A stretch of 64,000 nucleotides of DNA from Owenia fusiformis (lineage: Eukaryota): positions 4,340,001-4,404,000 of the forward strand of contig CAIIXF020000001.1 of assembly GCA_903813345.2 (NCBI GenBank), given 5' to 3'. Of this stretch, positions 7,018-29,836 are shown in pieces (the stretch's first letter is position 1; every line of letters starts with the position of its first letter). The notes beneath the pieces are model-generated. The model searched no databases, had not been told where the DNA came from, and saw only the letters and a list, made by a program, of their open reading frames with translations. The position numbers and the translations under genes were made by a program.

Positions 7018-10000
7018 ATGGCATCGATAGTTGACTCAGACAATGATGGAGTTGAGTTCGCCACACCTACTACATCTGTTAACTCAAGCCCCAACCACAA
7101 GTGCAGTCTGCGTGATGATGAGATACCTAATGTACATCCGTCAAAATTTAGACAAAGGTTTGTTGGTTTTGTTATCTTATTTAGAACTGTAAAGGAAATG
7201 TCTTAGTTTTTGCCAGTACATAAAGAATTTGTATAACATGAAGAACTACATTTTGGGTTTCTAGGTATCCATTTATATTTGATTAAGTTTATGAAATTGG
7301 AATATAAATAATTTCTATAGTTTTTTGTGGGGTGTAGTTCAAATTTATGTTGGTGAAATCAAGTTGAAAGCCCATGGTGAAATCAACTGTGATTTTCACT
7401 CGCTAGCTGTATGGTGAATAGCTGTTTGGTAAATAAGTCGTTACCATTAGGTATAATATATCAGATATCTATGTATCATTCTGGCTTTTGGCGCCACAAG
7501 ATAAACTCCATCAAAGATAAATCAATTTCGAATTTGCATCACTTTCACAAAAGTCAAAAGATTGACGATTTGTTGCATATAATTTTAAGCCTCACAATAC
7601 AAATATAAACTAATCAATGACCCTGAAAACCAATCGGTTCAACTAGAAATAACTTTATAGAATGCATTGTATTTATACAACAGTTGTACTAAGACTTGTA
7701 AGTCTTACTCATAATCGCCATTTAAACAATTTCAACATTGTATTTCATCTATGTATGTATTGTGTTTGTAGCAAATAGCAATTACATCTTATCTCAATAA
7801 ACTGGAACCACAAGCCTATTGCTTTCTTGTAATCAAATGTTATATTTACCCAAAAGGCGAACATACCCTAACAATTGGTATAGAATAGATAAGTATTTCC
7901 TTTAATCATTTAGAATTCAAGGAAACTAATTACAAAAACAATTTTATCAATCTGATAATTTTCTACTTATTTGAAATAAATATTCATTGAACATTTTTTT
8001 AACTCGATGACTTCATAATTAAAAGGATAACTAATTTCCTGTTGTGATGACTGCTGAGGCAATGTTTATATTAACAAGTATTATTGAAACAGTTTATTGG
8101 TTCAGGTACGGGTTGTGTATATTATGCTTTTAAGATCCTCGTGCACCACTCAGCCATCTTTTAATTATCAGTAGAACTATTTCTGTTTTTCTCACGTATC
8201 AACAATCTATTTACATCTACATGTAAAAGTACATCTATAAATATTGTTTCGAAAATTGTTTATCAACTTTGAAAATTTAATTATTTTTGAAAATGTGACT
8301 TCTAGTTCGATTGATTCCCCATAGACCCCATGTTACAAAATCACAAATAGTGAAGTATCTTTTCTTGTATTTGACAGATAAAATTTTCTTTTATTGTACA
8401 TATTTTAATTTGCATAACTATTAGTATAGATACATAAGGGTTTATGAAAATTGAACCACTATAACAGATGTAATTTAAGTTAAAGTGAACTTTTTACTAT
8501 ACCCGCCATGCTATCTGACCTGAACGAGCCACCTGGTGGTGAAACTGGTAACTACCTACTCGCATCTGCGTTATTGTAAAATATAATACATATGCAATGC
8601 ATAAATGAGACAATCAATTACTATTATTTTATTACCCATTATCTAGTTTGATAAAACTAATATACATTGTGTCTCAAAAAAACGCAACAAGCAAAAACAT
8701 TCCAAAATCACAAAACCAGTGATACCTACACTGTTTCCATTTAGTTGACCATAAAGCCATGTGTCTCTTCTTTCCAATGATAACATTTTGACATGAAGAG
8801 ATGAGCCAATATCTACTTGCAGAGAAATGATAGGCATTGAATGTAGTTTACATGAGTAATCATTCATAAGATAACAGAAAATGATAGTAACTTAACTGTT
8901 TTGATAATGCTTCTTTTTTCCATTATGTGTGAGGTGCCTTTAACTAAACTATCATGAATACTGATAAACACATTAAGTAAAATCTTTCTTTTTTTTAGTA
9001 GAACTAAGTCTGAAATGTATGTCATGCAAGGCTTGTGACCAAAAGATAATCCTCAGCCCCATACATAATGATTTACCTGATTGCATAATAAGGATCAGTT
9101 GAATTAAGATGTTTCGAACTTGGCACAAAGGCATTTTCATCCATGTGCCAAGAAACAATGATTATTCAGTGGTCTTTGATCGTATATGAAGGGGGGGGGG
9201 GGGGTGTATAGAGGGTCTTGGAAATGCATATACAATATTTTTCAGCTCTCTTATACCATATACAATATTTTTTCACCCCTTTTATACCATATACAATATT
9301 TTTCACAGCTCTTATACCATATACGATATTTTAGGTGAAATACAATATACGATAATTTTGAAACTGCTTTTGATTAAAGTTTGGAGGAAATTATATTTGG
9401 AGAGAATCCATGTACTAAAGTAAATGTATTATTATAAGGCAACTAGACTCCACATAAATACCACAATGATTTCATTTATTACATTATGAATAAGACACCA
9501 TTCGGGTACATCCGCATCAGAAAAGCTGTGACCACATTTTATTTTCAGGTAAACAAGTTGATTTAAAACACATTTATGATATAAGATTCATGACTTCTCT
9601 TTAGTGATTTAACAACCTACTTTGACCAAAAAACTAGCTTTGACATTGCTGCAATTTGCTAAAGCCATTAGCCCATTACCTGTAAAAGTACCATAAAGAT
9701 ATTCAAAATTAGCACAAAACCTGCATCATTGGAATGGGTGGAACTCAGTGTTTCTCTTTCTTATGACCTACTTTCCCATGACTTATTTTAATGTCAATGG
9801 AATCCTTCATCGTGAGCCAGGGAAAAATATTCTTGAAACATATTTGATGCAAAATTGAGAATGTGGAATAAAAGATGCGTCATGTGTTCTATGAAAATAA
9901 AGTTTGCTGAGGAAAATATGTATCAGATAGATAATGAAGATTCACAATGCACAATAATTTTGTAAAGCAGTTACATTCGAAATAGAGACACTTCGGGGTT

Positions 10001-13000
10001 TCAGATAAGGCAGCCTCAAAGACAGTATAAGTTAAACAAAAGTGTGTCAAAATTAAGCAAATTTCTATGAAGGTCAATCCACATGTTTCACGAATGATTT
10101 CAATGCATTAACTCCAGGACAAGCAGTCATAGAGTTTATAAAATAATTTGGACTTTAAGACAGGGAAGGTGCAAACACCCCATCAACATGTTTTTTTCTG
10201 TAATGTTGTCCTGATTTCCAGCCCTTTCCACACCTGTTTTTCAATGTTTGTTGCATCGATCACTCTGTTGCGGTTTTTTGGTTAACGTCTTTAAATGAAA
10301 ATATGATTCATGCAGGGTTTTTAAAGATATCAAATTTGGATGACCAAAATTAGGCTGAAAACAATGGATCACATGAGTTTTCCCTATGGGAAAATAACAT
10401 GGGAAATACATGTACTGTTTTCCACTTTATCCCAAATAAATCATATTTTAGAGGTTAACTGTGTCTCAAAGTGCAACATGTTGGTGAACATTGAAAAAAC
10501 ATATGTGGAAAGGGCTGAAAATAAGGACAACATTTCAGAAAAAAACTTCCCTGTCTCAAAGTCCAAATTATTTTATTACCTCTATGAGTGCTTGATCTGG
10601 AGTTAATGCATTGGCCTAACATATGCACCTGTTCGAGTCAAATCCCCAATAAATATCCGAAATCCAACATATGACAGTTTGAAGACCAAATAAACACCTT
10701 TTGCTATATTATGCTATATTAGCATTGTGATGCTTGTATTAAAACATGTGCTGTATGAACACTTTATACTCAAATATTTTAATGATTTATCCCACATACC
10801 CCGAAACACGAGTAGCCATAGTGACCATTTTTGCATCAAAGTTAAGATGAGTCAATGATATTTGGCAGTCTCACGCCCGGTGATCTGATGAAATGAACGG
10901 AGGGGGAGTAGCTGATTTTCGGTAAATTAAACAAACGTTTATTAAAAAGGCGCAGCGTCGCCAATGTGCAAATGCCAATGATTTTGCTATAAATCAAGCA
11001 ACAATGGTCTGCACAACATGTAATAAATATATAAGTGACATTTTTATCACAAAATTCATTGCCCGTTTTTAAAATAATTTTCCAAATGATTCATAAAAAA
11101 TAATCGAAAATAATTAAAATTGAACGGAGGGGGAGTGAACAGAGGGGGGGGAGTAATATGAAAAAATTTCCACAAATTCGTGTACTTCAAAAATGAACTC
11201 ACTTACTCAGTAACTTGATGTTACAACTCTGAAAAGTGAAAAATGGGGACATATGGAGTTATTGGAAGTTTTCATATGTCTTATAGACACAATACCCCAC
11301 CCCCCTCCGTTCAATTTTAATAATTTTCGATAACTTTTTATATAACGTATGGTAACATGTTCTACAAAACCAATGAGGATAATAGTTTTGTGATAATTAC
11401 TTCACTTACAAGTATTTATTACAGGTCGTGTAGACCCCTGTTGGTTGATTTGTAGCAAAAACATTGGCATTTGCACGTTGGCGACGTTGCACTTTTTTAA
11501 TAGATCTTTTATTTTAGAACTCCACAGTTAAAAAAATCCAAGAAGACCTAACATATTCCCCCGTCCACTGCGTCTATTCATTTAGCCATTCAATTGTTAA
11601 CTTTCTCTTGAAAAAATAAATCTTCAAGATTTGTTGAATTTTCAACCGAAAATCAGCTAGATCTACCCCCCCCTCCGATCATTTCTTCTGATCACCGGGT
11701 GTGATTCTTATTTGAGACTATATTTAACACCTCCTGTGAAAATTTGAATGAAAAGGGCACAAAACTCTTAGTATTGATTGACCTGGAATGTGGAACCAAT
11801 TATAGAGACTACTTTTCCATGTTTTTCCAACACGGTTTCAGTAAGAGAGTTGGCACAATGGGGGAACTTTAGGGTACAATTTCTTCATAATTAGCCTTCT
11901 TTAATTCTAGATACCATATACCATAAATTTTCTATTTTACCATATACCATATTTTTTACACCTCTTATACCATATACGATAAATTTTGCCCCCTCTTATA
12001 CAATATACAATAAATTTTCAGCCTCTTATACGATATACAATATCTCTATACACCCCCCCCTATGAACAAATGACGTATCATTTGAAAGATCTTTCTTTTC
12101 CTCTTAAGAGGAGACATGGCTTCATTGTAAATTAAATGGAATTGATGCAGTGTAGGTCTTAAGGGCTGGTCCGCTGGTCATTATCAGGTTACTTTTGATA
12201 CAGACCAGTTGATTTTTTCACTAGGTATAGGAAAATAACATTGCAACTGGTCCGTAATGCCATTTTGACCAGCAGGTTTCAGATCCTTAGGGCCTAAACT
12301 GAATTGATGTAATTATCACTGGATTTGTGGTATTACAATGTTTTTGTTTGTTGCGTTTTTTTGAGATGCACTGTATAAGTTGTTTCAATATAAAACAAAT
12401 TTTCATGATTGTAATAAATAGACTTGTTTTCTATCAAAAACATGTTTTCTCAAATATCCATATTGTGTTAATCAAGGCTGTATCACAAAAAAATATTTGC
12501 AGTACCTAACTATTTTTTATACCATATATAAAGAATTAATAGCCACATTGAATCCAATGAGTAAAAAACATTGGATTAACTAAAGGTTCCATGCGTAAGT
12601 ACTATTACTCACAGGTTCTGACCAGGTTCTTACCTTTCTGATTTCATAGTTTAAATTCATTGTTATAAGACAGGTGTGGGGTGTCTCAAAAGTATATCAA
12701 CTTATTCTGCCATTTTTAGGTCACTTGTAAAGCCTAAGAATTGCAAACTCTAATTTATTATTTGACTACATATTAAATTTTGCTGAGATAACATGACATT
12801 ATTTTATCTGAAAAATGGCTACAATAGTATTAACAAAATCTCAACATTAGTCTTGATACTTTTGGAACACCCTGAATAATACTATTTATTTTCCACCAAA
12901 GATGGATTTTACAGATCAGTGATATCACAGATAAGGTAAGTTGATCATGTAGTTGAAGTACATGTAGTCAAACTTATAGGTCATTTTAAATGTCTTTTGG

Positions 13001-16000
13001 ACCTTAAGCCAACATCTGCTGGCAATTTGAACATTGGGTTGGTCATTAAGTTTCATGTATTAACCCTTTCACTACGATAGGCTCAATATGGAGCCCTATT
13101 ATGTAATAACTTTCAGGACGATAGGCTCCATATGGAGCCCTATTATGTAATACCTTTCAGGACGATAGGCTCCTTTTGACACCATTATTTTTATTTATAT
13201 ACATCAATGAAATGACGATATCTCCAGTTCTATTCAATATTTTTACACCATATTTTGAAGAGTTGTTCTAATGTGGCAATCCTTACTAGAAATTGTATTT
13301 CAGTGATAAAATTCAAGGTATATGTCTCCGGGCGGAGGTACTTTGCAGTTTTCCCTTCAAAACTGCTCTTACTTATCCACACAAGGGCCAACTTTTTCCT
13401 CATATATTCACGCCAGGAAAGGGTTAAGTGAAGATTAATAAGTCATTAAATAATAACAAAATGATTCATTATATTATAGTAATATGTTTCAAACTTGCTG
13501 GCATGTGGGAAATGTTATATTAATTACCCTTATCTTTCTTTTCCTTTATCAGGAGCACTACAAGGCATTCACATTGCAGAGATCTTTTACATTGGTGTTC
13601 AATGTTTTGCAATGATCAAGATGAATACCACAGACATTTGCCATCTGTATCTCTCTAGAGTTGCTTTAATAATATTTGTAATGTTTCATTAATTCATTAT
13701 ATGAATGATTTGTCACTAGAGATTTTTTCTTTATTTGCATCTTTCTTAAAAGAAAATTTGAAATTAAATCAAAAATGTATGGATGAAACACTAGAAATTA
13801 TTTAACAAAATTCTATCGAGATATACATGGTGTGATGTCAATGGTTCTTGAATACATTGAACTGCAGTGAATTTTGTGATAGAATTTTCAACTTTTTATC
13901 AAGTATGCAAAGTTTATAGATTATAATAATCCAGTTTCAAAGTGCAGTACATGTTATAATATATAACAAGTACACATGTATTAAAACCTATGCTATTCGT
14001 GTATAGGATTCTCATTTATGGAAATAAGCTCACAAATGAAGTACATTTGATAAAAAATAATGTAATTTGAAGGCAATCACCATACAAGCAGCTTATGGCA
14101 AAACAGTAGCAGCATTTTATTATAATCACCTTAATGCATGTGATTGGTTTAATAGAATACAGAAGTATATCGTGATGTATATTTGATGCAATAATCTTAT
14201 TGTGAATTTTGAATTCTGTCTATCACGCAGCATCAGCAATGAGGAGCGGTATATGCATAATCAAGGGTAAGAAAACTGAATAACGTTGAAGGGACATTGA
14301 TGACGTTTTTTTCTTTAAATTAGTTTTTTTTTTTATTAAAATATTTATTTATCTTTAAATTAGTTTGACAAATTTATGTTTGTTTTGATTTCACAATTTT
14401 ATTTTGCACCTGATGAAACCTTTTCAGCAACAGTCTTTGGCTCTTTAAACTGATGACTTGATTGATTTTCAAAATCAAAAATTAATTTACTCCTTTTTTA
14501 TAGAAGTTTTAGCATATCGTTAGTACAGTATTTGTTATGACCAATCAATAAAAATTCACTTTTTTCAAAAGTAAGATAAAAAAGATTCAATAAACGTCAT
14601 TTATAGTTTGGTGCAAATCAGGTCACCATTTTAAGATCTCTATTGTATTAGACTGAAGCTTTTCAAGTTTAGATTTGTTTATTTCGTTTTGTGTACATTA
14701 TTTAGTTACAGTGCTTTGCATGTTTTTTTGTGCACGGTATTCATATGTTATTTTGGGTGTTTGAGCATGAGCATGAGCATGTCCTTGGCCTGGAATGTAT
14801 TTTATTTGACTCAGTGTTTTACACTGTTTGACACAGTGTTTTACACTGTTTGCCACAGTGTTTTGCTATTCCAAAGTTTCTGTAGACTCCACATTTAAAC
14901 TTAAAAGTGCAATAAACCTCAAGTTTGGCAACTTTGGTGTCAGTTTTGTTTTGATTTATATTTTTCCACTGATTTGATTCTTAATGCATGTGTAACTGTA
15001 AAGGCACATTCTAGACATAGAAGTGATCCACATCCCTAATTATTTGAATTCTAGAATTTAGAAGCTAATTAATGACAAGCTAATGCAGTTGAAGCTCTCT
15101 TTTAAGAAGTGAATTGAATGGGGTTAAAGCCTTGCTATTCCATTGGACAACATTGGGGTGGTATAGAGAATGTTCAGTGATGATACAGATCACTTGTATT
15201 TATCACAATTTTGGGAATAGAGAATGATGTTTAAAAATGCTTCATTGTTATTTTCCTTGTTATTGCTAATATAAGGATATGTTACATGTTATTTTCACCT
15301 TTATATGGGACAATTGCATGACTATGGGCAGCATGCCATAGTTAGTTGGCCAAGATACAAAACACTTGACTTTGAGACGTATAAACTTTGCAATAATTGT
15401 ATTATCTTACTGAGCCTTACCTTTCCTTTATCACTAAGGACTTGTATTATAGACAGCAAATGATCCCAAAATAGTCATCTTCGTTCACTCGGCTCCTGTC
15501 GATGAACGTAGTGAAGACCGGAGCGTGCGAAGATGCAAAATAGTAGGAATTTGATATAATTCTCTTCTGCAAACATAGGTAAAAAAATGATGTCAATTTC
15601 AGTGATGGTTTAAACACATCATTTATCAATTCTCATAACTTTTATATTGCATCAGTATTATTTTTTTATAGATCATATTAAGGTTGAGAGTGTCTTTTTG
15701 CATGTTTTATGGATTATTGGCAAATCTCACCTTATGAACTGCATAAATACATGTGATTGAATTAAAACAATCCTTAAGTAAATCCCTTAAGAAGATTAGA
15801 GGTTAATTTTTAGCAAGTGAATATCATGTTTTCATAATCTTTTTATTTTGCTATGGATGTTTTAGTTTCAGCTTCCCTAGTTTTGTGTTTTTCTCTGGAC
15901 ATAATTTTGCAAAATGTTAATTTAGCCCAAATTTTATTCACACAATGATTTCATGATGACCTAATTGTTTTGATCCTATTCAATTATCAGATTGTATTAA

Positions 16001-19000
16001 GTAGGTCATATTCCCATGATATATTTGCAATTTGAAATACTTTGACCTTCTGTAATCTCATGCATGCATCACATGTTTTAAAAAAAATCTAAAAAATGTT
16101 CTTATGATGATATTTTCAAATTTTCAAATGGTTTGAAATATAACAATATCATTTGCCTATCTTTGTTGAAGCAATGTTTAGATTCACAAAGGGTGTTCTA
16201 TTGCATAGCCGTAGGGACCGGGTGTTCGATAGGTTCGGACGAACCCCCGGTCAGGGTTCCCCAAAATAATATTTGTAGAAAAATTCATTGCAATAACCAG
16301 GAACATTAATTCAATTCATGTGACCAGTAAATAAAAACATAATAAAGTTACACTTCTCTCAAAAGGTTTGGCAACCTTAGGCACGGGATGGGATTGTTTA
16401 ATCTTGGGAAGACACCCGGAGCATCATGACATTATGCAAAGAAATATCAATAATTTTTTAGGGTAATTTGAAGCCCCCTCCCCACATAGAAATGAATGAA
16501 TATGAATCGCTCAACATTGTGATTTACACATTTCTGATACTTTCAGGAGTATCATTCAGCAATTACACGTAATAAACGTACTTAATCAATCCAGGATTCA
16601 TTCATATTAGTACTCGAAGCGCTAACTATATTAGTAATCTATTTAGAATCGATTATTTCGACCAATCAAATCAAGGCTTTCTGTATCGCGTTTTCATCTG
16701 TGGTATATGGCATATTCCGCAGTTGAGTTTGCCATATTCCACAGGAGAGTATGACATATTCTGCAGTGAGTATGTAGTATTCACTGAAATCAATATATCG
16801 CATATTCACTGCAGAATATGCCATACTCACCTGCGGAATATGCAATAAAAGAACTTTTGGAGATTAATAAAGCCCTGATATTTAAAGAATTATATACAAA
16901 ATGTGTATATTCACCAGAAAGACGAGAGGATTACCCTTGCACAAGTTTCAAATTGTGTGTCCAAAAAAAGATTTGACAGCATTCTTTAATAAAATAATAT
17001 AATATTTCTCAAAAGCAAAGTCTATAATAATTCACAAATTCTTCTAAAATGATTTCAGTTCTCAAAACTTTCATGATTCTCATCATTAATAATAAAAGAA
17101 AACAGCGAACGTTGATAGGGGATGCAATGTTTTCAAAGTTATTAAGTTCAGATTATTTTTATTTTCAATTTAAAGAACAAATTGGTATTTTCAGCACTAG
17201 GTGTTCTTTGTTGCAAGGCATTGCAATTTAAAAGAAAGCTTTAATTTTAGAGCCTACGGAGCATAATGGATATCTTGTTACTTCAATTTGGTCTTTTTGT
17301 AATTTCAGTCGATATTCCGTTTTATTGCAATACTAATTATCATCTGTCACTTCTATCGTCAGTACCAATTTAGAGTATTTTTGTAGCCATAAAGACTTTT
17401 ATTGTGCCCCATGATTAACATTCTTCAAAAATATTTGCTATTGAATATATTCTACTATTCGGTAACTAAGTGTAAGTTCATAAGATTATTATGAACACTC
17501 CTCTATAATAAAATGAAATACCTCAAAACAATCTTTTGATTTGGAATCTTTTCAAAAAATCATCTTATCTCAGTATCAAAATGTGGGAATCACATGTTTC
17601 AGAATTTGACATATCTTTGAATGAAAATTTGACATATCTTTGAACGAACTCTTAAAGTCTCAATGAATTAAGGATGAGGATTTTTCCCTAAAATAGCTCG
17701 TTATAAAAAAAAATACATGTATGTTCCTTAAATATGTGTTAGGAATTGCTTAAAGTTAGCCCAAGCTATGACTCTTGATTTGCATTTCATTAAGCAAATG
17801 TTATATTAAAATGTATGATTTTTTCTTCAGATTTCAGGAAATCTATATATTCAGTAAAAGATTCACCAAAAACTGTTTAAATATAGAAAATCAAATTGCT
17901 TAACTTTTTCAAATTCAATTGTATTTTGCGAAACAAAATGGAGGTATCGGAAATGATGTCGATTTATTTTTTCCAGCCCTAAAACAGTTATTCTTTACAC
18001 TGTGTATATTATGCAAATAAGAATTCAAACATAAGGAGGCTTAAACACTCCAATGGGGGAGTTACGGTTGCCAAACTTTTGGAGGCGGTGTAAATAAAAT
18101 TTTATGTATGAAAAATACAAAAATGGTTTTATGCTATGGCATTGTGTTGTCTTATTTCTCCCTAGCAACTGAGCACTTATTATCTCACATATTCTTTGGG
18201 GTTTTAATAAAGATATACAGAAACTTATTGGTTATTTAAGGTGAAATACTGAGCTATTTAACATTCCTATTCCTATTATAATGATTCAAATTACTTGAGG
18301 GTAGTATTATCCCAGCATTAAATAAAATGATAGGTCTGTGTTATGTTGTTGTAGAAGGAGCAGATCCCTCTATGGTGCAAGCCCCAACTGCTACTTTGGA
18401 CCAAAAGGTCGCATTATGAAGAACTCTGCAAATACACTGTAAGTATGCAAACTGTTACTTTATTTTACTTTATGCAATTTACAAGGTGGAACTTAATATT
18501 TGATACAATTTATAAACACAAAATGAACTATTATACAAAGAAAATAAATTATAGATCATAATGTCTGACAGTTTGAGATATAAAAAAAGGAATTTAGGTC
18601 ACTGTGACAACTTTTGATGAATGAAGTTTAATAAAGACTTCAAGTTTACTGAATCTTTCATTTGACACTAAAGAAAGTTCAAATGAACCAAATGGGAGCT
18701 TACAATAAATGATCAAAAATATTTTTGATATCTTAATTTTATACCACTATTAGCTGATTGGAATATTGTATTAAATGTATGTAATATTACTGCTGAATAA
18801 AAATATATATATAAAGTTTTACATGTCAAACACCATGTTACAAATATATGTAAAAATATGAAAAGCTGAAAAAAATATGAAAAGTGAAAAGCTTGCAAGT
18901 GATTATTTTCTCGCTTCAATATTTACAAAAGAAGCTTTGTAAAGTATTCAGTCAATTTTGCAAGTAACACTTCAACTTTTCATACTTTTTATTCTTAAAT

Positions 19001-22000
19001 ATGCATAGTGCCAGTTTAATACAGGAGTACAAATTGTGCAAACAACATTCCATAAGAAAACATACAGTGAAATGGAAGGTTCCTTAATTCCCATTGTTCT
19101 AATTATGGAATTAAATGCCAGAAATTTTTATTAAGATGCTATATTTATCATGAATTCTGAGATCATTACATGGCACTTTATGAATATAAAATTAATATTG
19201 AGAACAAAGTGCAGTTTTAATTGTAAATTTTCTAATCTCAATGTATTTGCACATATAACCCAATATTCTTATCATTGTGAAAGTGGAATCAACTCTCAAG
19301 TAAAGAGTGAGATGATAATTATAGATGTATGCTATACATTATTACATTGGAATGATATATAAGAAGTAAATGCTGTATATTGAGATCACATGCGGATCCA
19401 GGATTTTGCTTTAGAAGGGGTGCCAATATATCCAAAAAATTAGATTTTATTGGATTTTTGAAAAAAAATTTTTTTGAAAAATGTTAAGCCTAGATCCGCT
19501 AGTGGAGATGATTTGTGAGAAGTAAAGTGCATTGAAATGATATATAAGAAGTATTTGAGATGATATATGAGAAGTAAAATGCTGTGCAGACGCAGATGCA
19601 GACCTATGAGATGCTATGCAAAAAGTAGGATGTTGTTATGAAACATTTGTGAAGCTTCACTTTTGCAATTAAGATATATTATATACCTAAAGTATGTTAT
19701 CCATGAATCTATCATAATACTGTACAATCACAAATTATACATATCATTCTTCTGGACATGTCATAATTTTGGAACAAGTATAAAATATTTTGGTGACCTT
19801 AAAATGCTAGTACATGTTCTTCTATTATTCAGTGAAGACTTTTTCTGACTGAATGCCCAAAACAGTAATGTTTTTGCCTATTCCTTGTTTATTTTAAGGT
19901 TCAGTTTTTATGTTAAATTAGAACAACTCACAATTTATCAGTAATGGACCAAGCAATAGGGGTATTTATTTTCTTTGCAGCGTTTTGTTATTCTGTAATG
20001 AATACAAGGAATGCAATAAAAATAAATAGTTAGTACATGTTCTCAAAACATAGTCAAATAACTCCTACACAAATTCAGGACAGTTCCAAGGTTGACAGGA
20101 CTTAATAACTCGGCAGATCAGTCTGTGCCAAGAAATGCTTGAACTTGTAGACAAGCCTTCTGTTTATTGTCAGAACATAATTGACGCTGTATGCTAGACT
20201 GAAATTAGGCAATTATTTAATTTACATGCTTTGTGAGAATCAATTCATTTCAACAAAATGCTAGGATCAAATTTGTGAGTATTTTCTGTTTGTTATTTCA
20301 TTACTGTGTGTTATGTAGTGTTTAAATTACTTAAGCTTGAGTATGCATATTATATTTGGCACTATGTTTTATGACATATCATGCATAAATGCTTGGAATT
20401 GGAGCTGAATATTTTATCTGACTTTAATGTAAAAAATTGGGAACTTAGACATTCTTGACATTCACAAATTCCAAATTTATCACAAATTTTCATGTCAGTG
20501 AGATGTATTTTTTAAGGTGAGTCAAGCAGAAGGTATAATATGGCCCGGCTGTAACATTCAGACCTTCACACGTTGTTTTCCCATACCCACCTTAAGCTAT
20601 TAAATTATTTATTTCCAGCACTATTCAGGACCCAGGGAGTCAGAGACTTACCTGGTATAATGTACCCAAGACGACCCTCATCATTAAGAAGATATTTGAC
20701 GACACAGTATGGCAACCATTTAAGGATATTGCCACATGGCTTGTTAAGGTATCTGCTTATATATAAGTTTTTCTGATTGCTACATGAGTTGGTTAAGGTG
20801 CCTGTATGTTTATAAAATTTCCTTACAATAGTGTAAAAACTAAACTAAGCCATCTGTCTCCTATTTGCTTGTTTATTTATTACATGTATTTATATTCACA
20901 ACAGAATAAAAAGAAAACAGGTCGATGTGGTCCATTTGTTTTATGAAAGAGTTGAGTTAAGAGTAAACATTCACAAGTTTGAAATTGATTAGATGGATTT
21001 TAAGAAAAAGGTGAAAGGCTGCAAAATGATGACTTATTGCATGTCCATGTGTTTACAGGAGAAGAATATGACTGTCTATGTCGAGGAGAAAGTGATGGAA
21101 GAACCCAATGTTATTAATGACAATGAATTCAGAGCTCTGGCTAACCAACTCAGCACCTTCCAAGAAGGTTGGTGGAGTTTCACTTGTGGAGTGTTTTAGA
21201 AATGTTGTACTCATGTCACATATCATGAACCCATGTAAAATGTTGTACTCATGTCAAATGCCATGAACTCATGGAAATGTTGTACTCATGTCACATCATG
21301 TACTCATGTAAAATTTTGTACTCATATCACATCATGTACTCATATAAAATTTTGTACTCATGTCACATCATGTACTCATGTAAAATTTTGTACTCATGTA
21401 AATTTTCACTTTTGGAGTTTTGAATCCTTTACAATAGCCACATATTAATCATAATTTATCATTCCTTTTGGCTTGATATGCATTCCTAGCATTTATTCAT
21501 TATTTTCTCATGTAGGCAAAGAAGATCTGACGGACAAAATAGATTTCATCATCTGTCTTGGAGGAGATGGTACCTTACTCTACGCATCTTCATTATTCCA
21601 GGTAAGTGGTCATTTACTCTGAATTATGTTGATCAAGTAAAAATCATAATCTACCTTTTAATTTGGAACTATATGTTCATGTATCATGGGCACATTGTGT
21701 GATGTTAATTAATGAGTCACTTCATAATTTCAATAATGAATGTGATTAATTAATTAATAGTTTTATTTGATGTTAATAGTTCATAAAATGATACTTCTTC
21801 AACTGTGCGGTCTTAATCTGTATTTTAAATTGATTGACATGAACATCAGTTTTGTCCTGAAAATTGAATATTTATCTTCAGTAAAGCCTGTCTAATTAGA
21901 ATGCAACTGGAACTGTTTATCTGTTCAACTTACTGGTTAGGTTTGGACATGCAGGATATACTGGTAATACTGATATTCGTCACATTGTGTCTTGATTAAT

Positions 22001-23089
22001 GTTTGAGTCGATTCAATGGGAGTTTACAAAATTGGAAGAAAACGTGTTCACATTGAGAGGTGTTCAGATTACAGAGATGTTTGATAGATGCAGTTTCACT
22101 TTAATAAATGAAATATTTAAGTGACTCATTAGACATGTTTACTATAGCAACACATTTTGTCTTCTCAATTATGGATTACATTATCAGTTGTTGACTCTCA
22201 GAGACATGATAAACAGTACCGTGAGACCTGTGTAAGTGGAATACATTTGTGGAAGTGGAACACATTTGTGGAAGTGGAACACACTGAATAGTGTTCCACT
22301 TGGGAAGTAATATCAGTAAGCCTAAGATATATTTTTCTGATTTTATTGACCACTGTACTTGTATGTTTTGTAGCAAAGTGTTCCTCCAGTGATGGCATTC
22401 CACCTTGGTTCTCTGGGGTTCCTCACCCCCCACCAGTTCACAATGTTCAGGGAACAAATCACTCAGGTTCTTGAAGGTACACTATGTCAAATATACTTAC
22501 ATTTGTGTAAATATCAATGTGAAACTCATTCCCAGGTTTACTATTAATTTTGTAAAAAGTTGGACCGTCATTTTGGTCAGAATTTTACAACCTATAAAAT
22601 GATTCCATGCTGACGTCATTGTACTAATCATATTTAGCTTTCCTATTGTATGATATTGGTCATACATCCATGATATATTTTTTAACTTGCTTTGCAATCT
22701 GACCAACTTATGCAACTTGGCCAATTTTTCTTGAATGATATGTCGAAAAACTAATGAAACTTAAAGCAATCCTCCAAAAAATCCTTCGTGCATATCAAAT
22801 ATTTGGTAACTTGTGAATAAAAGAATCATCATAAATTTTCACCAAATGAGCCCACCAAAACATTTTTTCAGTTTATGATTTTGTTAATTCAGGCAATGCA
22901 GCCCTGACCTTAAGGAGCCGTCTGAAGTGTGTAGTACATAAACTAGCCATTGATGGACCAGATATGTTTGAGCGAGAGAAATCACCTGAGACTCATCACC
23001 ACCATCATACAAGCAAGAAACACATTATGGTGAGAAGACAACATGATCTCCATCTTGATTATTATTATTTTCCTGTCTGATGTTCGATA

Positions 23090-23129
<40 letters not shown>

Positions 23130-26100
23130 TCTGTATTAAAAGTTGTACAAATACAATATTGTAGAAAGAAAACATACAGTAGTTGCATATGCTATAATAT
23201 CGTATTTATATATAATATTAGCCTTATTTAGCATAGTAGATTTGATAACAAGAGGAAGGGAAGGGGGGGGGGGGGCAAGGGAAAAGGCAAGAGGGGGATT
23301 TTTGTGATTTTCTGCTCGATGGTTTGAGCTTGGTGAGGGGGTTTTTATGTTCCCAGTGTGTATTTTACTACGTTATGAAATGTTTGAGTTTCAACCATTG
23401 CTGTTCCATAAGTTCAGGTTTTTTTCTTCTTTGGCTGATTCTTTCTTCTATTTTTTTCTCTGTTTTTAGGAAGTTTTGCCAGCCTATCATATTAGGTCTC
23501 CTTATTTTCCTTTTACATGTGTTTAGGAATATCTTTTGTTTCAGGAATAGATGTTCGTTTTCTGTTTTTCCATCTCCGAAAAGGAATGTCTCAATTGTGG
23601 GTACATCTTCGTCAAGTTGGTTGAAAGATGTTATTAGGAAGTCTTGTACGGCCTCACAATGGTATATTCCATGTTCTAAAGTATCTATGTCACTACGGCA
23701 TAGACTGCATATATCAGTGTTATAGCCGTCTATGTTCATTTGTTTTAGTTGTTTGTTATAATATAGTATCCGGAAGAATATTTTTATTTGGAAATATTTC
23801 TCTTTTGTCCTGAGAATATTTTTTCTATTTTTGTGGATTTTGGCCCACATCAAAGGATTTTGTAGTTGCAGTTTGATTTGCCACTTATCTTCCATCTTCT
23901 TTGGCAGTTTCACTGCATTGTTCTTTTTTAGTAAAATCTTGTAAACTTCTTTATTGTTTGTCTTTTTTAACCATTCTGTGTTAATTGTGACATTCGGATT
24001 CTCGGTTTCTTCTTCATTTTCTCTCGGGTGTCTTAATTTTCTTTTCCAATTTTGGGGGATGGCTGTAATTATACTGTTATATTTCAAAGTATTCCTTTGG
24101 TTCATAACAATATCATATTTATGGCCTAATTCTGCTGCTGTGAGGAATCTATTTTCGTCCTGGATGTCTTTTATAAATTCAATACCTTTTTGTATCCATA
24201 CTTCGTTTTTCATGATTTCTCCATTGATTTTTATCTGTTCATTGTGCCATAATGATTGTTGCTCTGGGTTTCTCGTATCCGGAATTGTTTGATATTTTAG
24301 ACTGCACCAATTTTTGTAGACTGTCTTCAGGTACCTTAAGTCTAAAACATTTATTTTGTCACTATTTTTTGAAAGGTTCAATGCCCATACTTCTCCCTGC
24401 GTCAGGTTCTTCAGGTAGTAGTTCCATATCTTCTTCCATTTGCCACTATATGTAGGGTCTATATATTTCTTTATCCATTTGATGCTTAGGTTTTTTATGT
24501 ATGATTGTAAGTGGAGCATGTTTAGGCCACCTCTCTCTTGTTCGTTCATCATTATCTTTCTTCCAATTTTGTCTGGCTTCTCATCCCATATAAAGTTGAA
24601 AAACATGTTTTCTATTTCTTTGATAAAGTCATCTGTTGGTGTGAGCACTGAACATAGATATGTCAGCTGAGATACGAGGAGTGATTTTATCATTATTATT
24701 TTTCCTAGAGGTGTGATGTTTCTACTTTTCCATGCTCTAATAAGACCTTGAATTTTGTTTCTTTTCTCTGGGAAATTTAAACTGTTTATGTCTCTTCCAT
24801 CTAAAGGAATGGTTATACCAAGGACTTTTATATCTTTATCTTGGTATTTTAGCCCTGATGCCATGCTTTCATCTCTTACTTGTTGCTGTAATAGTGCATT
24901 TTCTCTGCCTATCACGGCTTCTTCTGTTTTGTGGAGATTGATGTTCAGTCCTGAGATTTCTCCAAAATTTCTGAACTTTTTAATTACTTTTTTCGCAGAT
25001 GCAATATTTCTTACAAAGACTGAGGTATCATCGGCGTATTGTGAAATCTTTACTTCTCCATCTGGTATTTGTATGCCTTCAATTTCTTCATCTCTTCTGA
25101 TTGATTCACTCAATATTTCGGCACATAGAATAAATAAATACGGACTTAGGGGGCATCCCTGTCGTACTCCTCTGTTCAGGTTAAAGTAGCGTGATGTATA
25201 CCCGTTATTTATTACTGAGCTTTTTGCATCGTTGTATATGGTTTTGATCCATTTTCTAAAGTCTGGTCCAAAATTGAAGTAATCTAGCGTCCGATCAATA
25301 AATTTCCATTCCACTGTGTCAAAAGCTTTTTCAAAGTCGATGAAAAGCATTATGCCAGATTCATTGTTTGATTTAAGGTGTTCCATACAGTCTATTATGA
25401 GTCTAATATTCTCTGATATATTTCTCCCTTTAATAAAACCTGTTTGGTCTTCGTTAATTATTTTTGTTAAATGGGCTTTCATTCTTTCTGCTAGACATCC
25501 TGTAATTATTTTGTAGTCTGTGTTTAGCAATGATATTGGTCGCCAATTTAATAGGCGTAGAATGTCACGGTCTTTTTTAGGTAGTGTGGTTATAATGCTT
25601 CTTTTTTGTTCGGTTGATAATTCTTCTTTATCCAATGCTTCCTTGTAGCTTTTTACCAGTATTGGCACAACTGGTTCTTGGAAACATCTATAAAATTCGC
25701 TTGTTAAGCCGTCGCTGCCTGGTGACTTCCCGGTCTTCAGGGACTTAATCTGTGTTGTTATTTCTTCTAAGGTAATATAGCCCTCGCAGCTCTGTTTTTC
25801 CTCTTCTGTGAGACTGGTGATTGATTTTATAGCAGGGAAGAATGTTTCTGAGTGCTGCCTAATGTTTGGGAGCCTGCTTCTGTACAGTTCTTCATAGAAC
25901 CTTGCACTTTCTTTCCTTATTTCTTCAGGATCATTTAGTTCCCTGCCATCGTCTGTATTCAGTTGTGTGATGTTCTTTTTTGCAAAATTTCTTTTTTCTA
26001 ACTTCAGGAAGTAACTAGATTGTTTTTCACCTTCTTCCGCCCATCTTATTTTTGCTCGAAGTATTGCGCCCTTTGCTTTTTCATCATTCATCTCTTCTAT

Positions 26101-29100
26101 CTCTCTTTGGAGTTGTTGTTCTTCTTCTCGTAGCTGTGTTTCATGGATGTAGTTATCTCTTAGGTTTGCCTCTATTTCTTGTAGCCGTCTTATTTTGTTG
26201 GTGATATCTAGGTGTTTTCCAGCGTTTTTTTGCTTTGAGTACCTAATGGACTCTGTTTTGATTTTGAATTTTATGAGTTCCCATAAATTTTGAGCAGTCA
26301 TGTCCTTGTGCTCTTCAACCAAACCTTTGATTAGGTTTTTTATCAAAGCTACATATTCTCTATCTTCTGTTAACCTTGCATTGAATTTCCACAGTCCCGG
26401 GCCACGCTCTTGAGTGCCCATCCTTAGTTGCAATTGAACAAATTGGTGGTCAGCTATTTTGTAGGATTTTGGAGTGTGAATGTCTACGTCACTGGTATTG
26501 TTGATTAGTGGAGAGGCTATAAGGAAATAATCTAATCTGGATTTTGTAGTGGTAGCGGCATTTGACCAGGTGAAATTTCTTTTAGTAGGGTTATTTACTC
26601 TCCATATGTCCACAAGATCATGTTCCTCCATTAGTTGCTTTATCTGCTGTCTTGTGTTTCTATGTGCATCCTGGTTGGTATTGCCTGTTTGGCTTTCTTT
26701 ATCTTTGTTTGGCTCTAGGGGCACGTTGAAATCTCCTCCTATTATAATAGAATAATGATTACGCCCTTCTCTCAGTTTTTTTGCGATATTGTTGAAAAGA
26801 TTATTGTTGTCATTGTTATGTCCATATATGTTCACTAAGGTTATTTCCTTTCCTTCTATTTTAGTATTTATTATTATGTATCTTCCATCTTCTCCGATGT
26901 CGCTGTCTTCAATTTGGATGTCTGCCTTATGAGAGAATAGTATACCAACTCCGACTGAATTTGTGGCCCTTTCTGTAAAATATGATGTCATGCCCCATTC
27001 ATTTTCCCATTGTTTTGCTTGTTTCATGCCGCAGTGGGTCTCTTGTATGAGTAGAACGTCATAATTTTCGTTCCGAGCGTGTAAGAAGAGTTTTCTTCTT
27101 TTTACCTGGTCTTGCAAGCCCCTCACATTAATGGTACCTATTTTAACCACCATCGTCCTTGTATTTGTATATAGGCCCTCTTGCAATTACCCCTGCCCCC
27201 TTTTTTGTATACATAATAGCTCTAATGTCTTTTATTTGACACTTTTCTATGTTTTTAAGGCACTTAGGAAATGTTCGATAGGACTTGCTAGATCTTGGTG
27301 TAGCTGTTATTTAGTTGAATTATGATAAAGGCGTGACAGGGTTATTTCATTTTATGATTATAAAAATATAGAATTTAATTATGGAAAATTGTCAAAGATT
27401 TCTGATGGCCAGTTAACCATAGATAGCTCTGCCCTTATCCACTTCATTAAGTTGGAATATTTTGGATGATATCTTATAGGTTCTCAATGAGGTTGTAGTA
27501 GATAGAGGACCCTGCCCCTACCTCTGTAATGTTGACCTCTACATGGATGGACGTCATGTCACATCAGTACAGGGTGATGGTGAGAAATACATTGTACTTC
27601 TAATCACTTGTAATCTAAATCAGGATTTAGCAATTCAACAAAGTGGACTATTATAGAATGTGGAAAATAGTTGAAAATAGATATGTGCCCAGTTGAAATG
27701 GATTTGCACTGAGTTGAACATTATGAAAATCACATAAGATGTCTTGATTTGTTCGAAGATTCTTTTCATGGGGATTAGGCTGATTTTAAGATGACAGTAG
27801 TGGTTTATTTATTGAACATATAAATAGACAAATTACTTCTGTCATTTTATTGGTCTAAAAAGATTTTTCGTTGCAAAAAATTTAACTCGCTGAAGAAAAA
27901 ACCCTTGAGACAACACTGACTCACTTGGAAAATACTACAAGAAAAATGCTACTATAAAACAAAAAGTACTTCTGCTGTTTTTCAGGTTTAATCATCTCCA
28001 CACCTACTGGAAGTACCGCATATGCAGCAGCTGCAGGGGCCTCCATGATCCACCCTAATGTACCAGCCATCCTCATCTGCCCCATATGTCCACATTCCCT
28101 CTCATTCAGACCCATTGTAGTCCCTGCGGGTGTAGAGGTCAAGGTAGGTCCACATTCCCTCTCATTCAGACCCATTGTAGTCCCTGCGGGTGTAGAGGTC
28201 AAGGTAGGTCCACATTCCCTCTCATTCAGACCCATTGTAGTCCCTGCGGGTGTAGAGGTCAAGGTAGGTCTACATTCTCTCTCATTTAAACCCATTGTAG
28301 TCGCTGCAAGTGTAGAGGTCAAGGTAGGTCCACATTCCCTCTCATTTAGACCCATTGTAGTCCCTGCGGGTGTAGAGGTCAAGGTAGGTCCACATTCCCT
28401 CTCATTCAGACCCATTGTAGTCCCTGCGGGTGTAGAGGTTAAGGTAGGTCCACATTCTCTCTCATTTAGACCCATTATTGTAGTCGCTGCAAGTGTAGAG
28501 GTCAAGGTAGGTCCACATTCTCTCTCATTTAGACCAATTGTAGTCGCTGCAAGTGTAGAGGTCAAGGTAGGTCCACATTCCCTCTCATTCAGACACATTG
28601 TAGTCCCTGCAGGTGTAGAGGTTAAGGTAGGTCCACATTCTCTCTCATTTAGACCCATTGTAGTCGTTGCAAGTGTAGAGGTCAAGGTAGGTCCACATTC
28701 CCTCTCATTCAGACCCATTGTAGTCCCTGCAGGTGTAGAGGTTAAGGTAGGTCCACATTCCCTTTCATTCAGACCCATTATAGTCCCTGCGGATGTAGAG
28801 GTCAAGGTAGGTCCACATTCTCTCTCATTCAGACCCATTATAGTCCCTGCTTGTGTAGAGGTCAAGGTCGGTCCACATTCCCTTTCATTCAGGCCCATTG
28901 TAGTCCCTGCAGGTGTAGAGGTCAAGGTAGGTTCGCATTCCCTCTCATTCAGACCCATTGTAGTCCCTGCGGGTGTAGAGGTCAAGGTGGGTCCACATTC
29001 CCTCTCATTCAGACCCATTGTAATCCCTACTGGTGTAGAGGTCAAGGTAGGTACACATTCTCTCTCATTTAGACCCATTGTAGCCACTGCAAGTGTAGAG

Positions 29101-29836
29101 GTTAAGGTAGGTCCACATTCCCTTTCATTCAGACCCATTGTAGTCCCTGCTGATGTGGAGGTCAAGGTAGGTCCACATTCCCTCTCATCCAGATCTGCAA
29201 GCTGCAAGTGTAGAGGTCAAGGTCACATTCCCTCTTATTCAGACCTATTGTTGTCCATACGGGTGTAGAGTTTAGATATACAACTGTTTGTAGTTTAGTA
29301 GAAATTGAAAAAACAAGAGGTTCTGTCTTGGATAAATGAATATTTCATGATTTTGTCATTGTAGATTATGGTAAACCCAGATGCTAGGAACAGTGCATGG
29401 GTCTCATTTGATGGCAGAAATAGACAGGAAATCACCTCAGGGGACTGGTATGTATCAATGAACAGAAATATGTACCTCATTTACCACAAAACAATTTGAT
29501 TATGTGTTATTGATAAATATTTATTAATATGAATCATTACTGCATTTTTAATTAACTGCCATGTGTTGTTACGTATTTTGATTGGCTTATTCCAGTGTGC
29601 GAATCACAACTTCAATCTACCCAGTACCATCAATATGCAGTCAGGATCAGATTCGTGATTGGTTCGATAGTTTAGCGGAATGCCTCCATTGGAATGTACG
29701 ACGGCAACAGAACTCATTCAGTCGGACCTCAACTAGCACATATAGCTTGGAATCTTTAGACTTATCCAATAACGGTGACTCTGATAGTCCGACAGATAGC
29801 AATACTTTTAGTCCTGGATTTAGTACATCTAGGTAA
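7018..29836 (+). CDS. NADK: NAD kinase (cytosolic type), 11 core coding exons, ~456 aa
   Basis: Exons 7018-7157, 18355-18438, 20619-20748, 21059-21167, 21516-21601, 22374-22476, 22893-23029, 27480-27579, 27986-28143, 29365-29447, 29596-29836. All junctions are GT-AG and phase-consistent (1371 nt). Motifs: [66 protein letters not shown]. The first exon is linked by phase and position only. Confidence 0.95.
7353..7383. mobile_element. Asymmetric footprint of the same family as 87-116
   Basis: GTGAAAT (7353-7359) + CA-AGTTGAAAGCCCATG (17 bp) + GTGAAAT (7377-7383). Confidence 0.6.
10101..10613. mobile_element. Fold-back MITE
   Basis: CAATGCATTAACTCCAG...CTGGAGTTAATGCATTG, with imperfect inverted similarity extending well inward. 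Confidence 0.7.
10872..11703. mobile_element. Fold-back MITE, CAC...GTG termini, imperfect 5-bp TSD (Transib-like)
   Basis: CACGCCCGGTGATC / GATCACCGGGTGTG termini, flanks AGTCT / ATTCT, long internal inverted arms. Confidence 0.72.
12915..12935 (+). CDS. NADK: Candidate NADK micro-exon (21 nt, phase 2-2)
   Basis: ttttacag|ATCAGTGATATCACAGATAAG|gtaagt. In frame it adds SVISQI plus one junction codon. Confidence 0.4.
13064..13423. mobile_element. piggyBac-type MITE
   Basis: TTAA|CCCTTTC ... GAAAGGG|TTAA. Internal 44-bp tandem repeat (~2.3 copies) containing the palindrome GGCTCCATATGGAGCC. Confidence 0.8.
14231..14266 (+). CDS. NADK: Candidate NADK micro-exon (36 nt, phase 2-2)
   Basis: tctatcacgcag|CATCAGCAATGAGGAGCGGTATATGCATAATCAAGG|gtaaga. 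Open in frame: [12 protein letters not shown]. Confidence 0.5.
16351..18090. mobile_element. Decayed Tc1/mariner-type element (TA TSD)
   Basis: TA|CACTTCTCTCAAAAGGTTTGGCAACC ... GGTTGCCAAACTTTTGGAGGCGGTG|TA. A palindromic repeat block is nested at ~16710-16843. Confidence 0.55.
19387..19504. mobile_element. 118-bp MITE, CAC...GTG termini, 5-bp TSD
   Basis: GAGAT|CACATGCGGATCCAGG ... CCTAGATCCGCTAGTG|GAGAT. Confidence 0.65.
21201..21402. repeat. Intronic minisatellite, ~17-19-bp units with TGTACTCAT core
   Basis: About 10 copies, alternating TGTACTCATGTCACATCA and TGTACTCATGTAAAATTT. Confidence 0.85.
22234..22301. repeat. Short 19-bp tandem repeat plus inverted copy
   Basis: AAGTGGAACACATTTGTGG repeated, ending AAGTGGAACAC-actgaata-GTGTTCCACTT. 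Confidence 0.7.
23096..27270 (-). mobile_element. L1/Tx1-type LINE, recent insertion lacking ORF1, antisense in a NADK intron
   Basis: Pure T34 tail at 23094-23127. 16-bp TSD ATGTTCGATAGGACTT at 23080-23095 and 27271-27286. Uninterrupted ORF2. Confidence 0.95.
23368..27153 (-). CDS. LINE ORF2: APE endonuclease + reverse transcriptase + C-terminal CCHC finger (1261 aa from the ATG)
   Basis: Motifs [61 protein letters not shown]...H...C. Confidence 0.95.
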   Translation of the reverse strand: MVVKIGTINVRGLQDQVKRRKLFLHARNENYDVLLIQETHCGMKQAKQWENEWGMTSYFTERATNSVGVGILFSHKADIQIEDSDIGEDGRYIIINTKIEGKEITLVNIYGHNNDNNNLFNNIAKKLREGRNHYSIIIGGDFNVPLEPNKDKESQTGNTNQDAHRNTRQQIKQLMEEHDLVDIWRVNNPTKRNFTWSNAATTTKSRLDYFLIASPLINNTSDVDIHTPKSYKIADHQFVQLQLRMGTQERGPGLWKFNARLTEDREYVALIKNLIKGLVEEHKDMTAQNLWELIKFKIKTESIRYSKQKNAGKHLDITNKIRRLQEIEANLRDNYIHETQLREEEQQLQREIEEMNDEKAKGAILRAKIRWAEEGEKQSSYFLKLEKRNFAKKNITQLNTDDGRELNDPEEIRKESARFYEELYRSRLPNIRQHSETFFPAIKSITSLTEEEKQSCEGYITLEEITTQIKSLKTGKSPGSDGLTSEFYRCFQEPVVPILVKSYKEALDKEELSTEQKRSIITTLPKKDRDILRLLNWRPISLLNTDYKIITGCLAERMKAHLTKIINEDQTGFIKGRNISENIRLIIDCMEHLKSNNESGIMLFIDFEKAFDTVEWKFIDRTLDYFNFGPDFRKWIKTIYNDAKSSVINNGYTSRYFNLNRGVRQGCPLSPYLFILCAEILSESIRRDEEIEGIQIPDGEVKISQYADDTSVFVRNIASAKKVIKKFRNFGEISGLNINLHKTEEAVIGRENALLQQQVRDESMASGLKYQDKDIKVLGITIPLDGRDINSLNFPEKRNKIQGLIRAWKSRNITPLGKIIMIKSLLVSQLTYLCSVLTPTDDFIKEIENMFFNFIWDEKPDKIGRKIMMNEQERGGLNMLHLQSYIKNLSIKWIKKYIDPTYSGKWKKIWNYYLKNLTQGEVWALNLSKNSDKINVLDLRYLKTVYKNWCSLKYQTIPDTRNPEQQSLWHNEQIKINGEIMKNEVWIQKGIEFIKDIQDENRFLTAAELGHKYDIVMNQRNTLKYNSIITAIPQNWKRKLRHPRENEEETENPNVTINTEWLKKTNNKEVYKILLKKNNAVKLPKKMEDKWQIKLQLQNPLMWAKIHKNRKNILRTKEKYFQIKIFFRILYYNKQLKQMNIDGYNTDICSLCRSDIDTLEHGIYHCEAVQDFLITSFNQLDEDVPTIETFLFGDGKTENEHLFLKQKIFLNTCKRKIRRPNMIGWQNFLKTEKKIEERISQRRKKPELMEQQWLKLKHFIT
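28088..29270 (+). repeat. 60-bp tandem array made of a NADK exon 3' end plus its splice donor (18 full and 2 degenerate copies)
   Basis: Unit GTCCACATTCCCTCTCATTCAGACCCATTGTAGTCCCTGCGGGTGTAGAGGTCAAG|GTAG. One unit is 63 bp. Confidence 0.97.

Follow-up and report, generated by a model that had tools for sequence, protein, structure and literature searches.

An intronic minisatellite in the annelid Owenia fusiformis reiterates the exon 9 splice donor of NAD kinase, and mature mRNA is joined from the first copy

The 64,000-nucleotide stretch of Owenia fusiformis DNA analysed here (the window) carries a NAD kinase (NADK) gene on its plus strand. A protein search with a translation read through the repeat array described below returned NAD kinases, among them P0004, a 456-aa NCBI unnamed protein product of this annelid, residues 1-456 of which map in order over positions 7018-29836 by tblastn, most high-scoring segment pairs (HSPs) being 100% identical. 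P0004 matches the Pfam families NAD_kinase (PF01513, E = 3.5e-18) and NAD_kinase_C (PF20143, E = 1.1e-37), exon 9 spanning positions 34-86 of the latter profile, and it aligns with the solved NAD kinase chains 8kgc, 9cr3 and 3pfn at E = 1e-151 to 1e-142. The features on which the argument turns are the following:

7018..29836, plus strand: NAD kinase gene, coding part, with 11 coding exons by tblastn (tblastn of P0004, Pfam, solved structures)
27480..27579, plus strand: NADK exon 8 (joint 27579>27986; letters of the upstream exon in the loose end before 27480)
27986..28143, plus strand: NADK exon 9, 158 nt, its last 54 nt being the founder of the repeat unit (sequence, RNA, tblastn)
28088..29270, plus strand: 60-bp minisatellite of 19.8 copies, made of 18 full units and a decayed tail with deletions (Tandem Repeats Finder, unit cutting, blastn)
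28141..28149, plus strand: authentic donor AAG/GTAGGT (the slash marks the cut, after 28143), used in RNA (RNA joints; 8/9 match to MAG/GTRAGT)
28144..29172, plus strand: 17 pseudo-donors, all in frame with the acceptor at 29365 (unit cutting and consensus scoring)
29365..29447, plus strand: NADK exon 10, its acceptor following tgtag at 29364 (joints 28143>29365 and 29447>29596; P0004 residues 350-387)
29596..29836, plus strand: last coding exon of NADK (RNA joints and tblastn)

Two retroelement traces lie in and near the gene, both on the minus strand. An intact 1272-aa ORF at 23368-27186, with Exo_endo_phos endonuclease and RVT_1 reverse transcriptase domains (Pfam), is a non-LTR retrotransposon lying antisense in NADK intron 7, and it makes up most of that 4.4-kb intron. 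Downstream of NADK, a 291-aa ORF at 32974-33849 weakly resembles zf-RVT (E = 2.5e-05, which falls short of the Pfam cut-off) and is probably the C-terminal remnant of another retroelement.

Between exons 9 and 10, and hence within an intron according to both the RNA joints and tblastn of the protein model, Tandem Repeats Finder reports a single strong array in 28088-29270, with period 60, 19.8 copies, 88% matches, 1% indels and a score of 1772. The unit consists of the last 54 nt of exon 9 followed by six intron bases, so that 90% of it (54/60) is exon-derived. Cutting at AAGGTNGGT yields 18 exon-end positions, from 28143 to 29166, spaced by 60 nt in 16 cases and by 63 nt in one. Unit 1 (28084-28143) is the genuine end of exon 9 and spans the exon/intron boundary; each of units 2-18 begins with GTAGGT (GTCGGT in one, GTGGGT in one) and continues with a copy of the last 54 bases of the exon, units 2 and 3 being identical to unit 1 over all 54 exon-derived bases. 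The tail, 29167-29270, consists of two decayed copies with deletions. Repeat finder and unit cutting thus agree with a preliminary description of this DNA on the extent of the array and on its unit of 54 exon-end bases plus gtaggt, as they do on the sole indel among the 18 full copies, which is a 3-nt duplication of ATT in unit 7. A dispersed repeat or a transposon as the source of the unit can be rejected, for all 22 of the blastn HSPs obtained with the unit in the 64-kb window fall inside 28088-29270 and none outside the array. A gradient of unit age with distance from the exon is weak (Spearman rho 0.38, P = 0.13) and was set aside. Intron 9 measures 1221 nt, the array having lengthened an existing intron by ~1.1 kb. 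A second tandem repeat of a NADK intron, at 21200-21403 (period 18/36, 5.5-11 copies), starts ~30 nt past the exon-4 donor, outside the junction.

Every full unit reproduces a splice donor. Cuts at the 17 pseudo-donors would fall after 28203, 28263, 28323, 28383, 28443, 28506, 28566, 28626, 28686, 28746, 28806, 28866, 28926, 28986, 29046, 29106 and 29166. Unit cutting bears out the earlier count that all 18 full copies keep AAG/GT: the 18 AAG/GTNGGT sites carry GTAGGT in 16 instances, GTCGGT in one (after 28866) and GTGGGT in one (after 28986). Scored against MAG/GTRAGT, 16 of the 17 pseudo-donors match at 8/9 positions, the same as donor 1, and one (28866, GTC) at 7/9; two neighbouring donors confirmed by RNA reach only 7/9, vs 8/9 for donor 1. 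It had also been claimed that each unit has a pyrimidine-tract CAG able to serve as an acceptor, and this holds in part: the acceptor-like site is CAG in 12/18 units, TAG in 5/18, and TAA, lacking an AG, in unit 4. From the acceptor-like AG to the donor there are 34 nt, and the gap between adjacent units is 26 nt. As to the genuine acceptor, the RNA joints and the 456-aa protein model both place it, in phase 0, at 29365, where it had been predicted; P0004 passes straight from the end of exon 9 (GVEVK) to the start of exon 10 (IMVNPDARN), which corresponds to donor 28143 joined to 29365. The proposition that RNA structure hides the pseudo-donors is not supported, the predicted unpaired probability being 0.45 for donor 1 (rank 12/18) vs a mean of 0.475 for the others.

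Donor use in RNA was read from three stranded RNA-seq runs of 2026 (raw reads X21, X22 and X23, under the same species label) aligned to 27400-29900. Sampling ~6-12% of each run gave 58 reads over the end of exon 9 in total, which fits the totals of 50 and 75 at the neighbouring junctions (27579>27986, with 15/20/15 reads in X21/X22/X23, and 29447>29596, with 31/23/21). The joint 28143>29365 is carried by 33 unique reads (15/4/14), whose shorter side reaches 69 letters at most, and 3+4 more reads are soft-clipped at 28143, their 13-14 loose letters being the start of exon 10. These 33 joints and seven clipped reads uphold one of the two outcomes envisaged beforehand, in which the foremost among 18 near-identical donors is chosen: in mature mRNA 28143, the first donor, is connected to 29365, and the array leaves with the remainder of the intron.

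The aligner also placed 15 reads at 28986>29365 (2/9/4) and three, from X23 only, at 28383>29365, labelling both joints 'between: not known'; the upstream parts of these 18 reads are just 31-42 nt long, and at such lengths 28986 is indistinguishable from the exon end. Each of the 15 has only 31 nt upstream, the final 51 nt of unit 15 are the same as those of the exon, none of the three runs shows any depth in the bin preceding that unit, and the probability that all 15 reads would stay within unit 15, if donor 28986 were truly used, is ~4e-7; these placements are therefore to be taken as ambiguity and not as donor use. Ambiguous placements amount to 31%, in keeping with the 27% expected if donor 1 alone were used. 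The three X23 reads at 28383>29365 show G>A at 28368 and have no exact counterpart among the reference units; the true exon may have such an allele, or a donor farther downstream may have been used in a different haplotype. Only 28143>29365 discriminates between units, and joints from two or more of the reiterated donors were not seen in the three runs.

Any later donor requires reads that run from exon 9 into unit 2, and 0 of the 58 reads from the three runs does so; the use of downstream donors is therefore at most ~5% (95% upper bound). Depth in the bin of unit 2 (28156-28239) is 0/0/0, vs 21.3/12.1/16.1 in the bin holding the exon end. Across 28156-29247, where repeat units in mature mRNA were not seen in any of the three runs, 10 of 13 bins have depth 0 in 3/3 runs, the rest being accounted for by one intronic read and by short ambiguous overhangs. 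That read, 151 nt long and lying within units 5-8 (X22, ~28380-28530), is at the same level as other intronic reads. Since isoforms with extra units would be in frame and free of premature stops, nonsense-mediated decay would not be expected to hide them. The other outcome of the preliminary description, a 60-nt length ladder of isoforms, was thus not seen, with no read-through among the 58 reads and an upper bound of ~5%; the pseudo-donors are apparently silent, and isoforms below ~5%, or confined to another tissue or stage, may exist.

The open reading frame of the array might seem to tell of coding function. As had been noticed from the letters, the NADK frame is open from 27958 to 29268, through 18 in-frame donors and across all 18 copies, with no stop codon. 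Compared with the unit consensus, the array has 58 non-consensus cells, which reduce to only 27 distinct variants, 12 of them synonymous and 15 non-synonymous; just 5 of the 180 possible single changes in the unit make a stop. In a neutral simulation, with the observed types of change placed randomly on the founder unit, 27 events leave the array without a stop with a probability of 0.63; treating each of the 60 cells that differ from the founder as an event of its own still gives 0.46. Three of the six frames of the unit in tandem are free of stops, and on the minus strand a frame of 431 aa is likewise open through the array. An expressed gene corresponding to this 431-aa ORF is rejected, for the three stranded RNA runs hold no antisense reads on the array. 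Given a probability of 0.63, with 15 of 27 variants non-synonymous and the minus-strand frame open too, the open frame does not go beyond chance and is rejected as a sign of selection, which vindicates the caveat, attached to the preliminary description, that it may be accidental.

Two further patterns in the variants were considered. Synonymous changes show a borderline excess (12 observed vs 8.3 expected, P = 0.05), which may come from exchange with the selected exon copy. Along the same line, units 12, 14 and 18 share their C>T change with an exon SNP that the RNA shows at 28101, and this hints at exchange between exon and array or at the capture of exon alleles. The donor 9-mers hold 2 of the 27 distinct variants, a depletion that is not significant (P = 0.18), and a conservation of the donors beyond chance is accordingly discarded. 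The most variable columns of the unit, 45-46, adjoin its only CpG.

Minisatellites whose first monomer lies across an exon/intron junction are known. Borensztajn et al. (2006; PMC1557585) name human F7 IVS7, IFI6, CBS, LMNB2 and PDGFA. According to that text, F7 IVS7 has a 37-bp unit in 5-9 copies, of which only the most upstream donor is used physiologically; in 50 minigene constructs the pseudo-sites proved functional and yet lost to the most upstream site, their function coming to light when the first donor was knocked out (PMC1557585). In the minisatellite of IFI6 (6-16) intron 2 (Turri et al. 1995) and in the CBS intron 13 VNTR (Yang et al. 2000), the latter with a unit of 31 bp by the title of Lievers et al. 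2001, the junction is said there to be reiterated 15-25 times, and splicing also makes use of the pair of pseudo-sites closest to the authentic donor (all cited in PMC1557585). LMNB2, with a 100-bp unit in 10-15 copies, and PDGFA intron 4, with an 81-bp unit in 16-18 copies, are given there as using the authentic donor only (PMC1557585).

The likeness of the NADK array to F7 IVS7 is close: the first monomer spans the boundary, an authentic donor is followed by pseudo-donors, and the most upstream site is the one used. The F7 unit differs in that its 37 bp, including 4 exon bases, are not a multiple of 3, whereas 54 of the 60 bp of the NADK unit are exon-derived and every copy is in frame; moreover, the 5-9 copies of F7 are found in human and the ~19 of NADK in an annelid. 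With IFI6 and CBS, as presented in PMC1557585, the array shares an exon/intron junction reiterated many times, but in the three RNA runs no read supports the second or third NADK donor. A long unit, many copies of the junction and use of the authentic donor only are the traits in common with LMNB2 and PDGFA, which are vertebrate genes. Judged on the traits described there, the NADK array belongs to the known class of which F7 IVS7 is the type, and the class itself is not unprecedented; the array is a new spiralian member, with an annelid host, 17 pseudo-donors, 90% of its unit derived from the exon and a frame kept at every copy as its particulars.

In the model of Rogers, an internal tandem duplication that includes a splice signal leads to the gain of an intron or to alternative splice sites. 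The NADK duplication resembles those of the model in copying a splice signal and so making extra candidate sites; unlike their outcome, no new intron or isoform has resulted, and an existing intron has merely become longer.

I therefore favour, at a probability of about 0.85, an intronic minisatellite born by tandem duplication across the junction of NADK exon 9 and intron 9, in which the first donor wins and the copies drift neutrally. The segment duplicated would have been the last 54 bases of the exon together with GTAGGT; amplified to ~19 copies, it would have placed behind the authentic donor, every 60 nt within the intron, 17 pseudo-donors nearly identical to it. The choice of donor would proceed 5'-to-3', exon 9 being delimited by its acceptor (27986) and by the donor encountered first, 158 nt farther on, which would be committed first; by analogy with the human F7 IVS7 experiments, the most upstream site would win, a mechanism borrowed from mammalian work. 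Position probably best explains the choice, since the pseudo-donors are neither weaker nor more buried in structure. Nor could the units, in all likelihood, be taken up as exons, on account of the 34-nt span from AG to donor and the 26-nt gap between units. Neutral drift of the array is presumed to proceed through point changes, which peak near the sole CpG of the unit (positions 45-46), and through turnover unit by unit; as turnover of whole units keeps the length a multiple of 60, the frame would stay open and free of frameshifts.

Read in this manner, the locus offers a clean natural experiment on how 5' splice sites are chosen in an animal other than a vertebrate, the real donor prevailing over 17 strong, evenly spaced pseudo-donors; preference for the most upstream site, known from a few human genes, is thereby extended to an annelid.

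Internal duplications are also found in NADK models of other animals. The top three matches of the protein search with the read-through translation are models of this kind. The bivalve Mactra antiquata (P0003, 398 aa) has 3 copies of a 17-residue (51-nt) unit ending in K plus V, and the gastropod Littorina saxatilis (P0002, 468 aa) has 3 copies of a unit of 38-40 residues (~114 nt) that reads 15 residues into the intron; the units of both all end at the exon end of the NADK array and are followed by V (GTN), just past the same donor. As the unit boundaries differ, the duplications in Owenia, Mactra and Littorina are independent. The two mollusc cases look like junction duplications read through by gene predictors, and they may reflect mis-annotation, a hotspot or both; being drawn from proteins, the comparison reveals in-frame cases only, and the search is biased toward the PHSLSFRP segment. 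In-frame junction repeats can thus be swallowed into coding models, a warning for annotation that may apply to the Mactra and Littorina NADK models. Among the 493 matches there were no longer gene models holding many units of the array. Two of the 493, P0121 and P0122, stand out by score; their duplicated 7-mers lie ~380-450 residues apart, as expected for two NADK domains, and they were set aside. The model of Gryllus bimaculatus (P0068) has a 35-residue repeat of the next exon, with apparent read-through of an intron, and in that of Capra hircus (P0015) 8 residues are repeated where the STPTGSTAY exon begins.

These data bear on three other explanations. That downstream donors are appreciably used, giving isoforms lengthened by 1-17 further copies of the 20-residue PHSLSFRP segment over a range set by copy number, gains some credit from the 17 pseudo-donors, which are in frame, stop-free and at least as close to the consensus as the neighbouring RNA-confirmed donors (8/9 vs 7/9), from the shortest resulting intron (29167-29364), which at 198 nt is long enough, from the human IFI6 and CBS genes, where PMC1557585 reports use of the two pseudo-sites nearest the authentic donor, and from the three X23 reads placed at 28383>29365. 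Yet such use requires entry into unit 2, which none of the 58 reads over the end of exon 9 makes; the joints at 28986 come down to ambiguous placement and the lone in-array read (X22) is at intronic level, while the open frame is not beyond chance and 15 of the 27 variants change a residue. Appreciable use of downstream donors is hence regarded as very improbable. Much the same holds for the array as a functional element, that is, for U1-binding sites kept as helpful because they recruit U1 snRNP for the first donor or guard the intron from premature processing, in which case the similar mollusc duplications would reflect selection. The fall of only 2 of 27 distinct variants in the donor 9-mers and the independent duplications across the same junction in the predicted Mactra antiquata and Littorina saxatilis proteins speak for it. 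Against these stand the lack of significance of donor conservation (P = 0.18) and an ascertainment bias, since the mollusc cases would have escaped notice had they been out of frame or had gene predictors not read through them. Other NADK models, moreover, are duplicated elsewhere (P0015, 8 aa; P0068, 35 aa of the next exon; P0001), and arrays of the F7 type are explained without any function in PMC1557585. A functional array together with selected mollusc counterparts is, on this balance, highly unlikely.

An assembly artefact, with the array or most of its copies absent from the genome, would agree with the DNA run X24, which gave no reads on the array. Collapse or stutter, however, would yield identical copies, and among the 18 units there are 27 distinct variants, grouped in shared sub-types, along with an insertion of 3 nt and a tail that has decayed; one 151-nt RNA read, moreover, comes from another individual and lies inside units 5-8. 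An artefact is thus exceedingly improbable, and an intronic minisatellite spliced out from its first donor is retained as the preferred reading. That in spiralians the end of this NADK exon, donor included, is a hotspot of repeated duplication, or is targeted by selection, is a separate and unlikely proposition; if the hotspot were real, features of the junction sequence, or a benefit of reiterated U1 sites, would drive the repeated birth of donor arrays in an essential metabolic gene. Should its copy number prove variable, the array would be a marker ready for use. Harmful alleles might also arise from it, by exchange of sequence between its units and the conserved exon.

Two observations on the reads themselves may be added. 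The DNA run X24, under the same species label, has 8 reads over 27988-29900; they are 90-99% alike, cover exons only and for the most part run into unlike sequence; X24 may represent a lineage that shares the name but has diverged, or a run made up mostly of other DNA. In exons 9 and 10, the RNA differs from the reference at 28023, 28026, 28038, 28080, 28083, 28101, 29379 and 29433. Exon 9 is highly polymorphic at synonymous sites in the RNA runs, the positions checked (28023, 28080, 28083 and 28101) being third codon positions, and 29433 C>T recurs without exception in the reads of the three runs.
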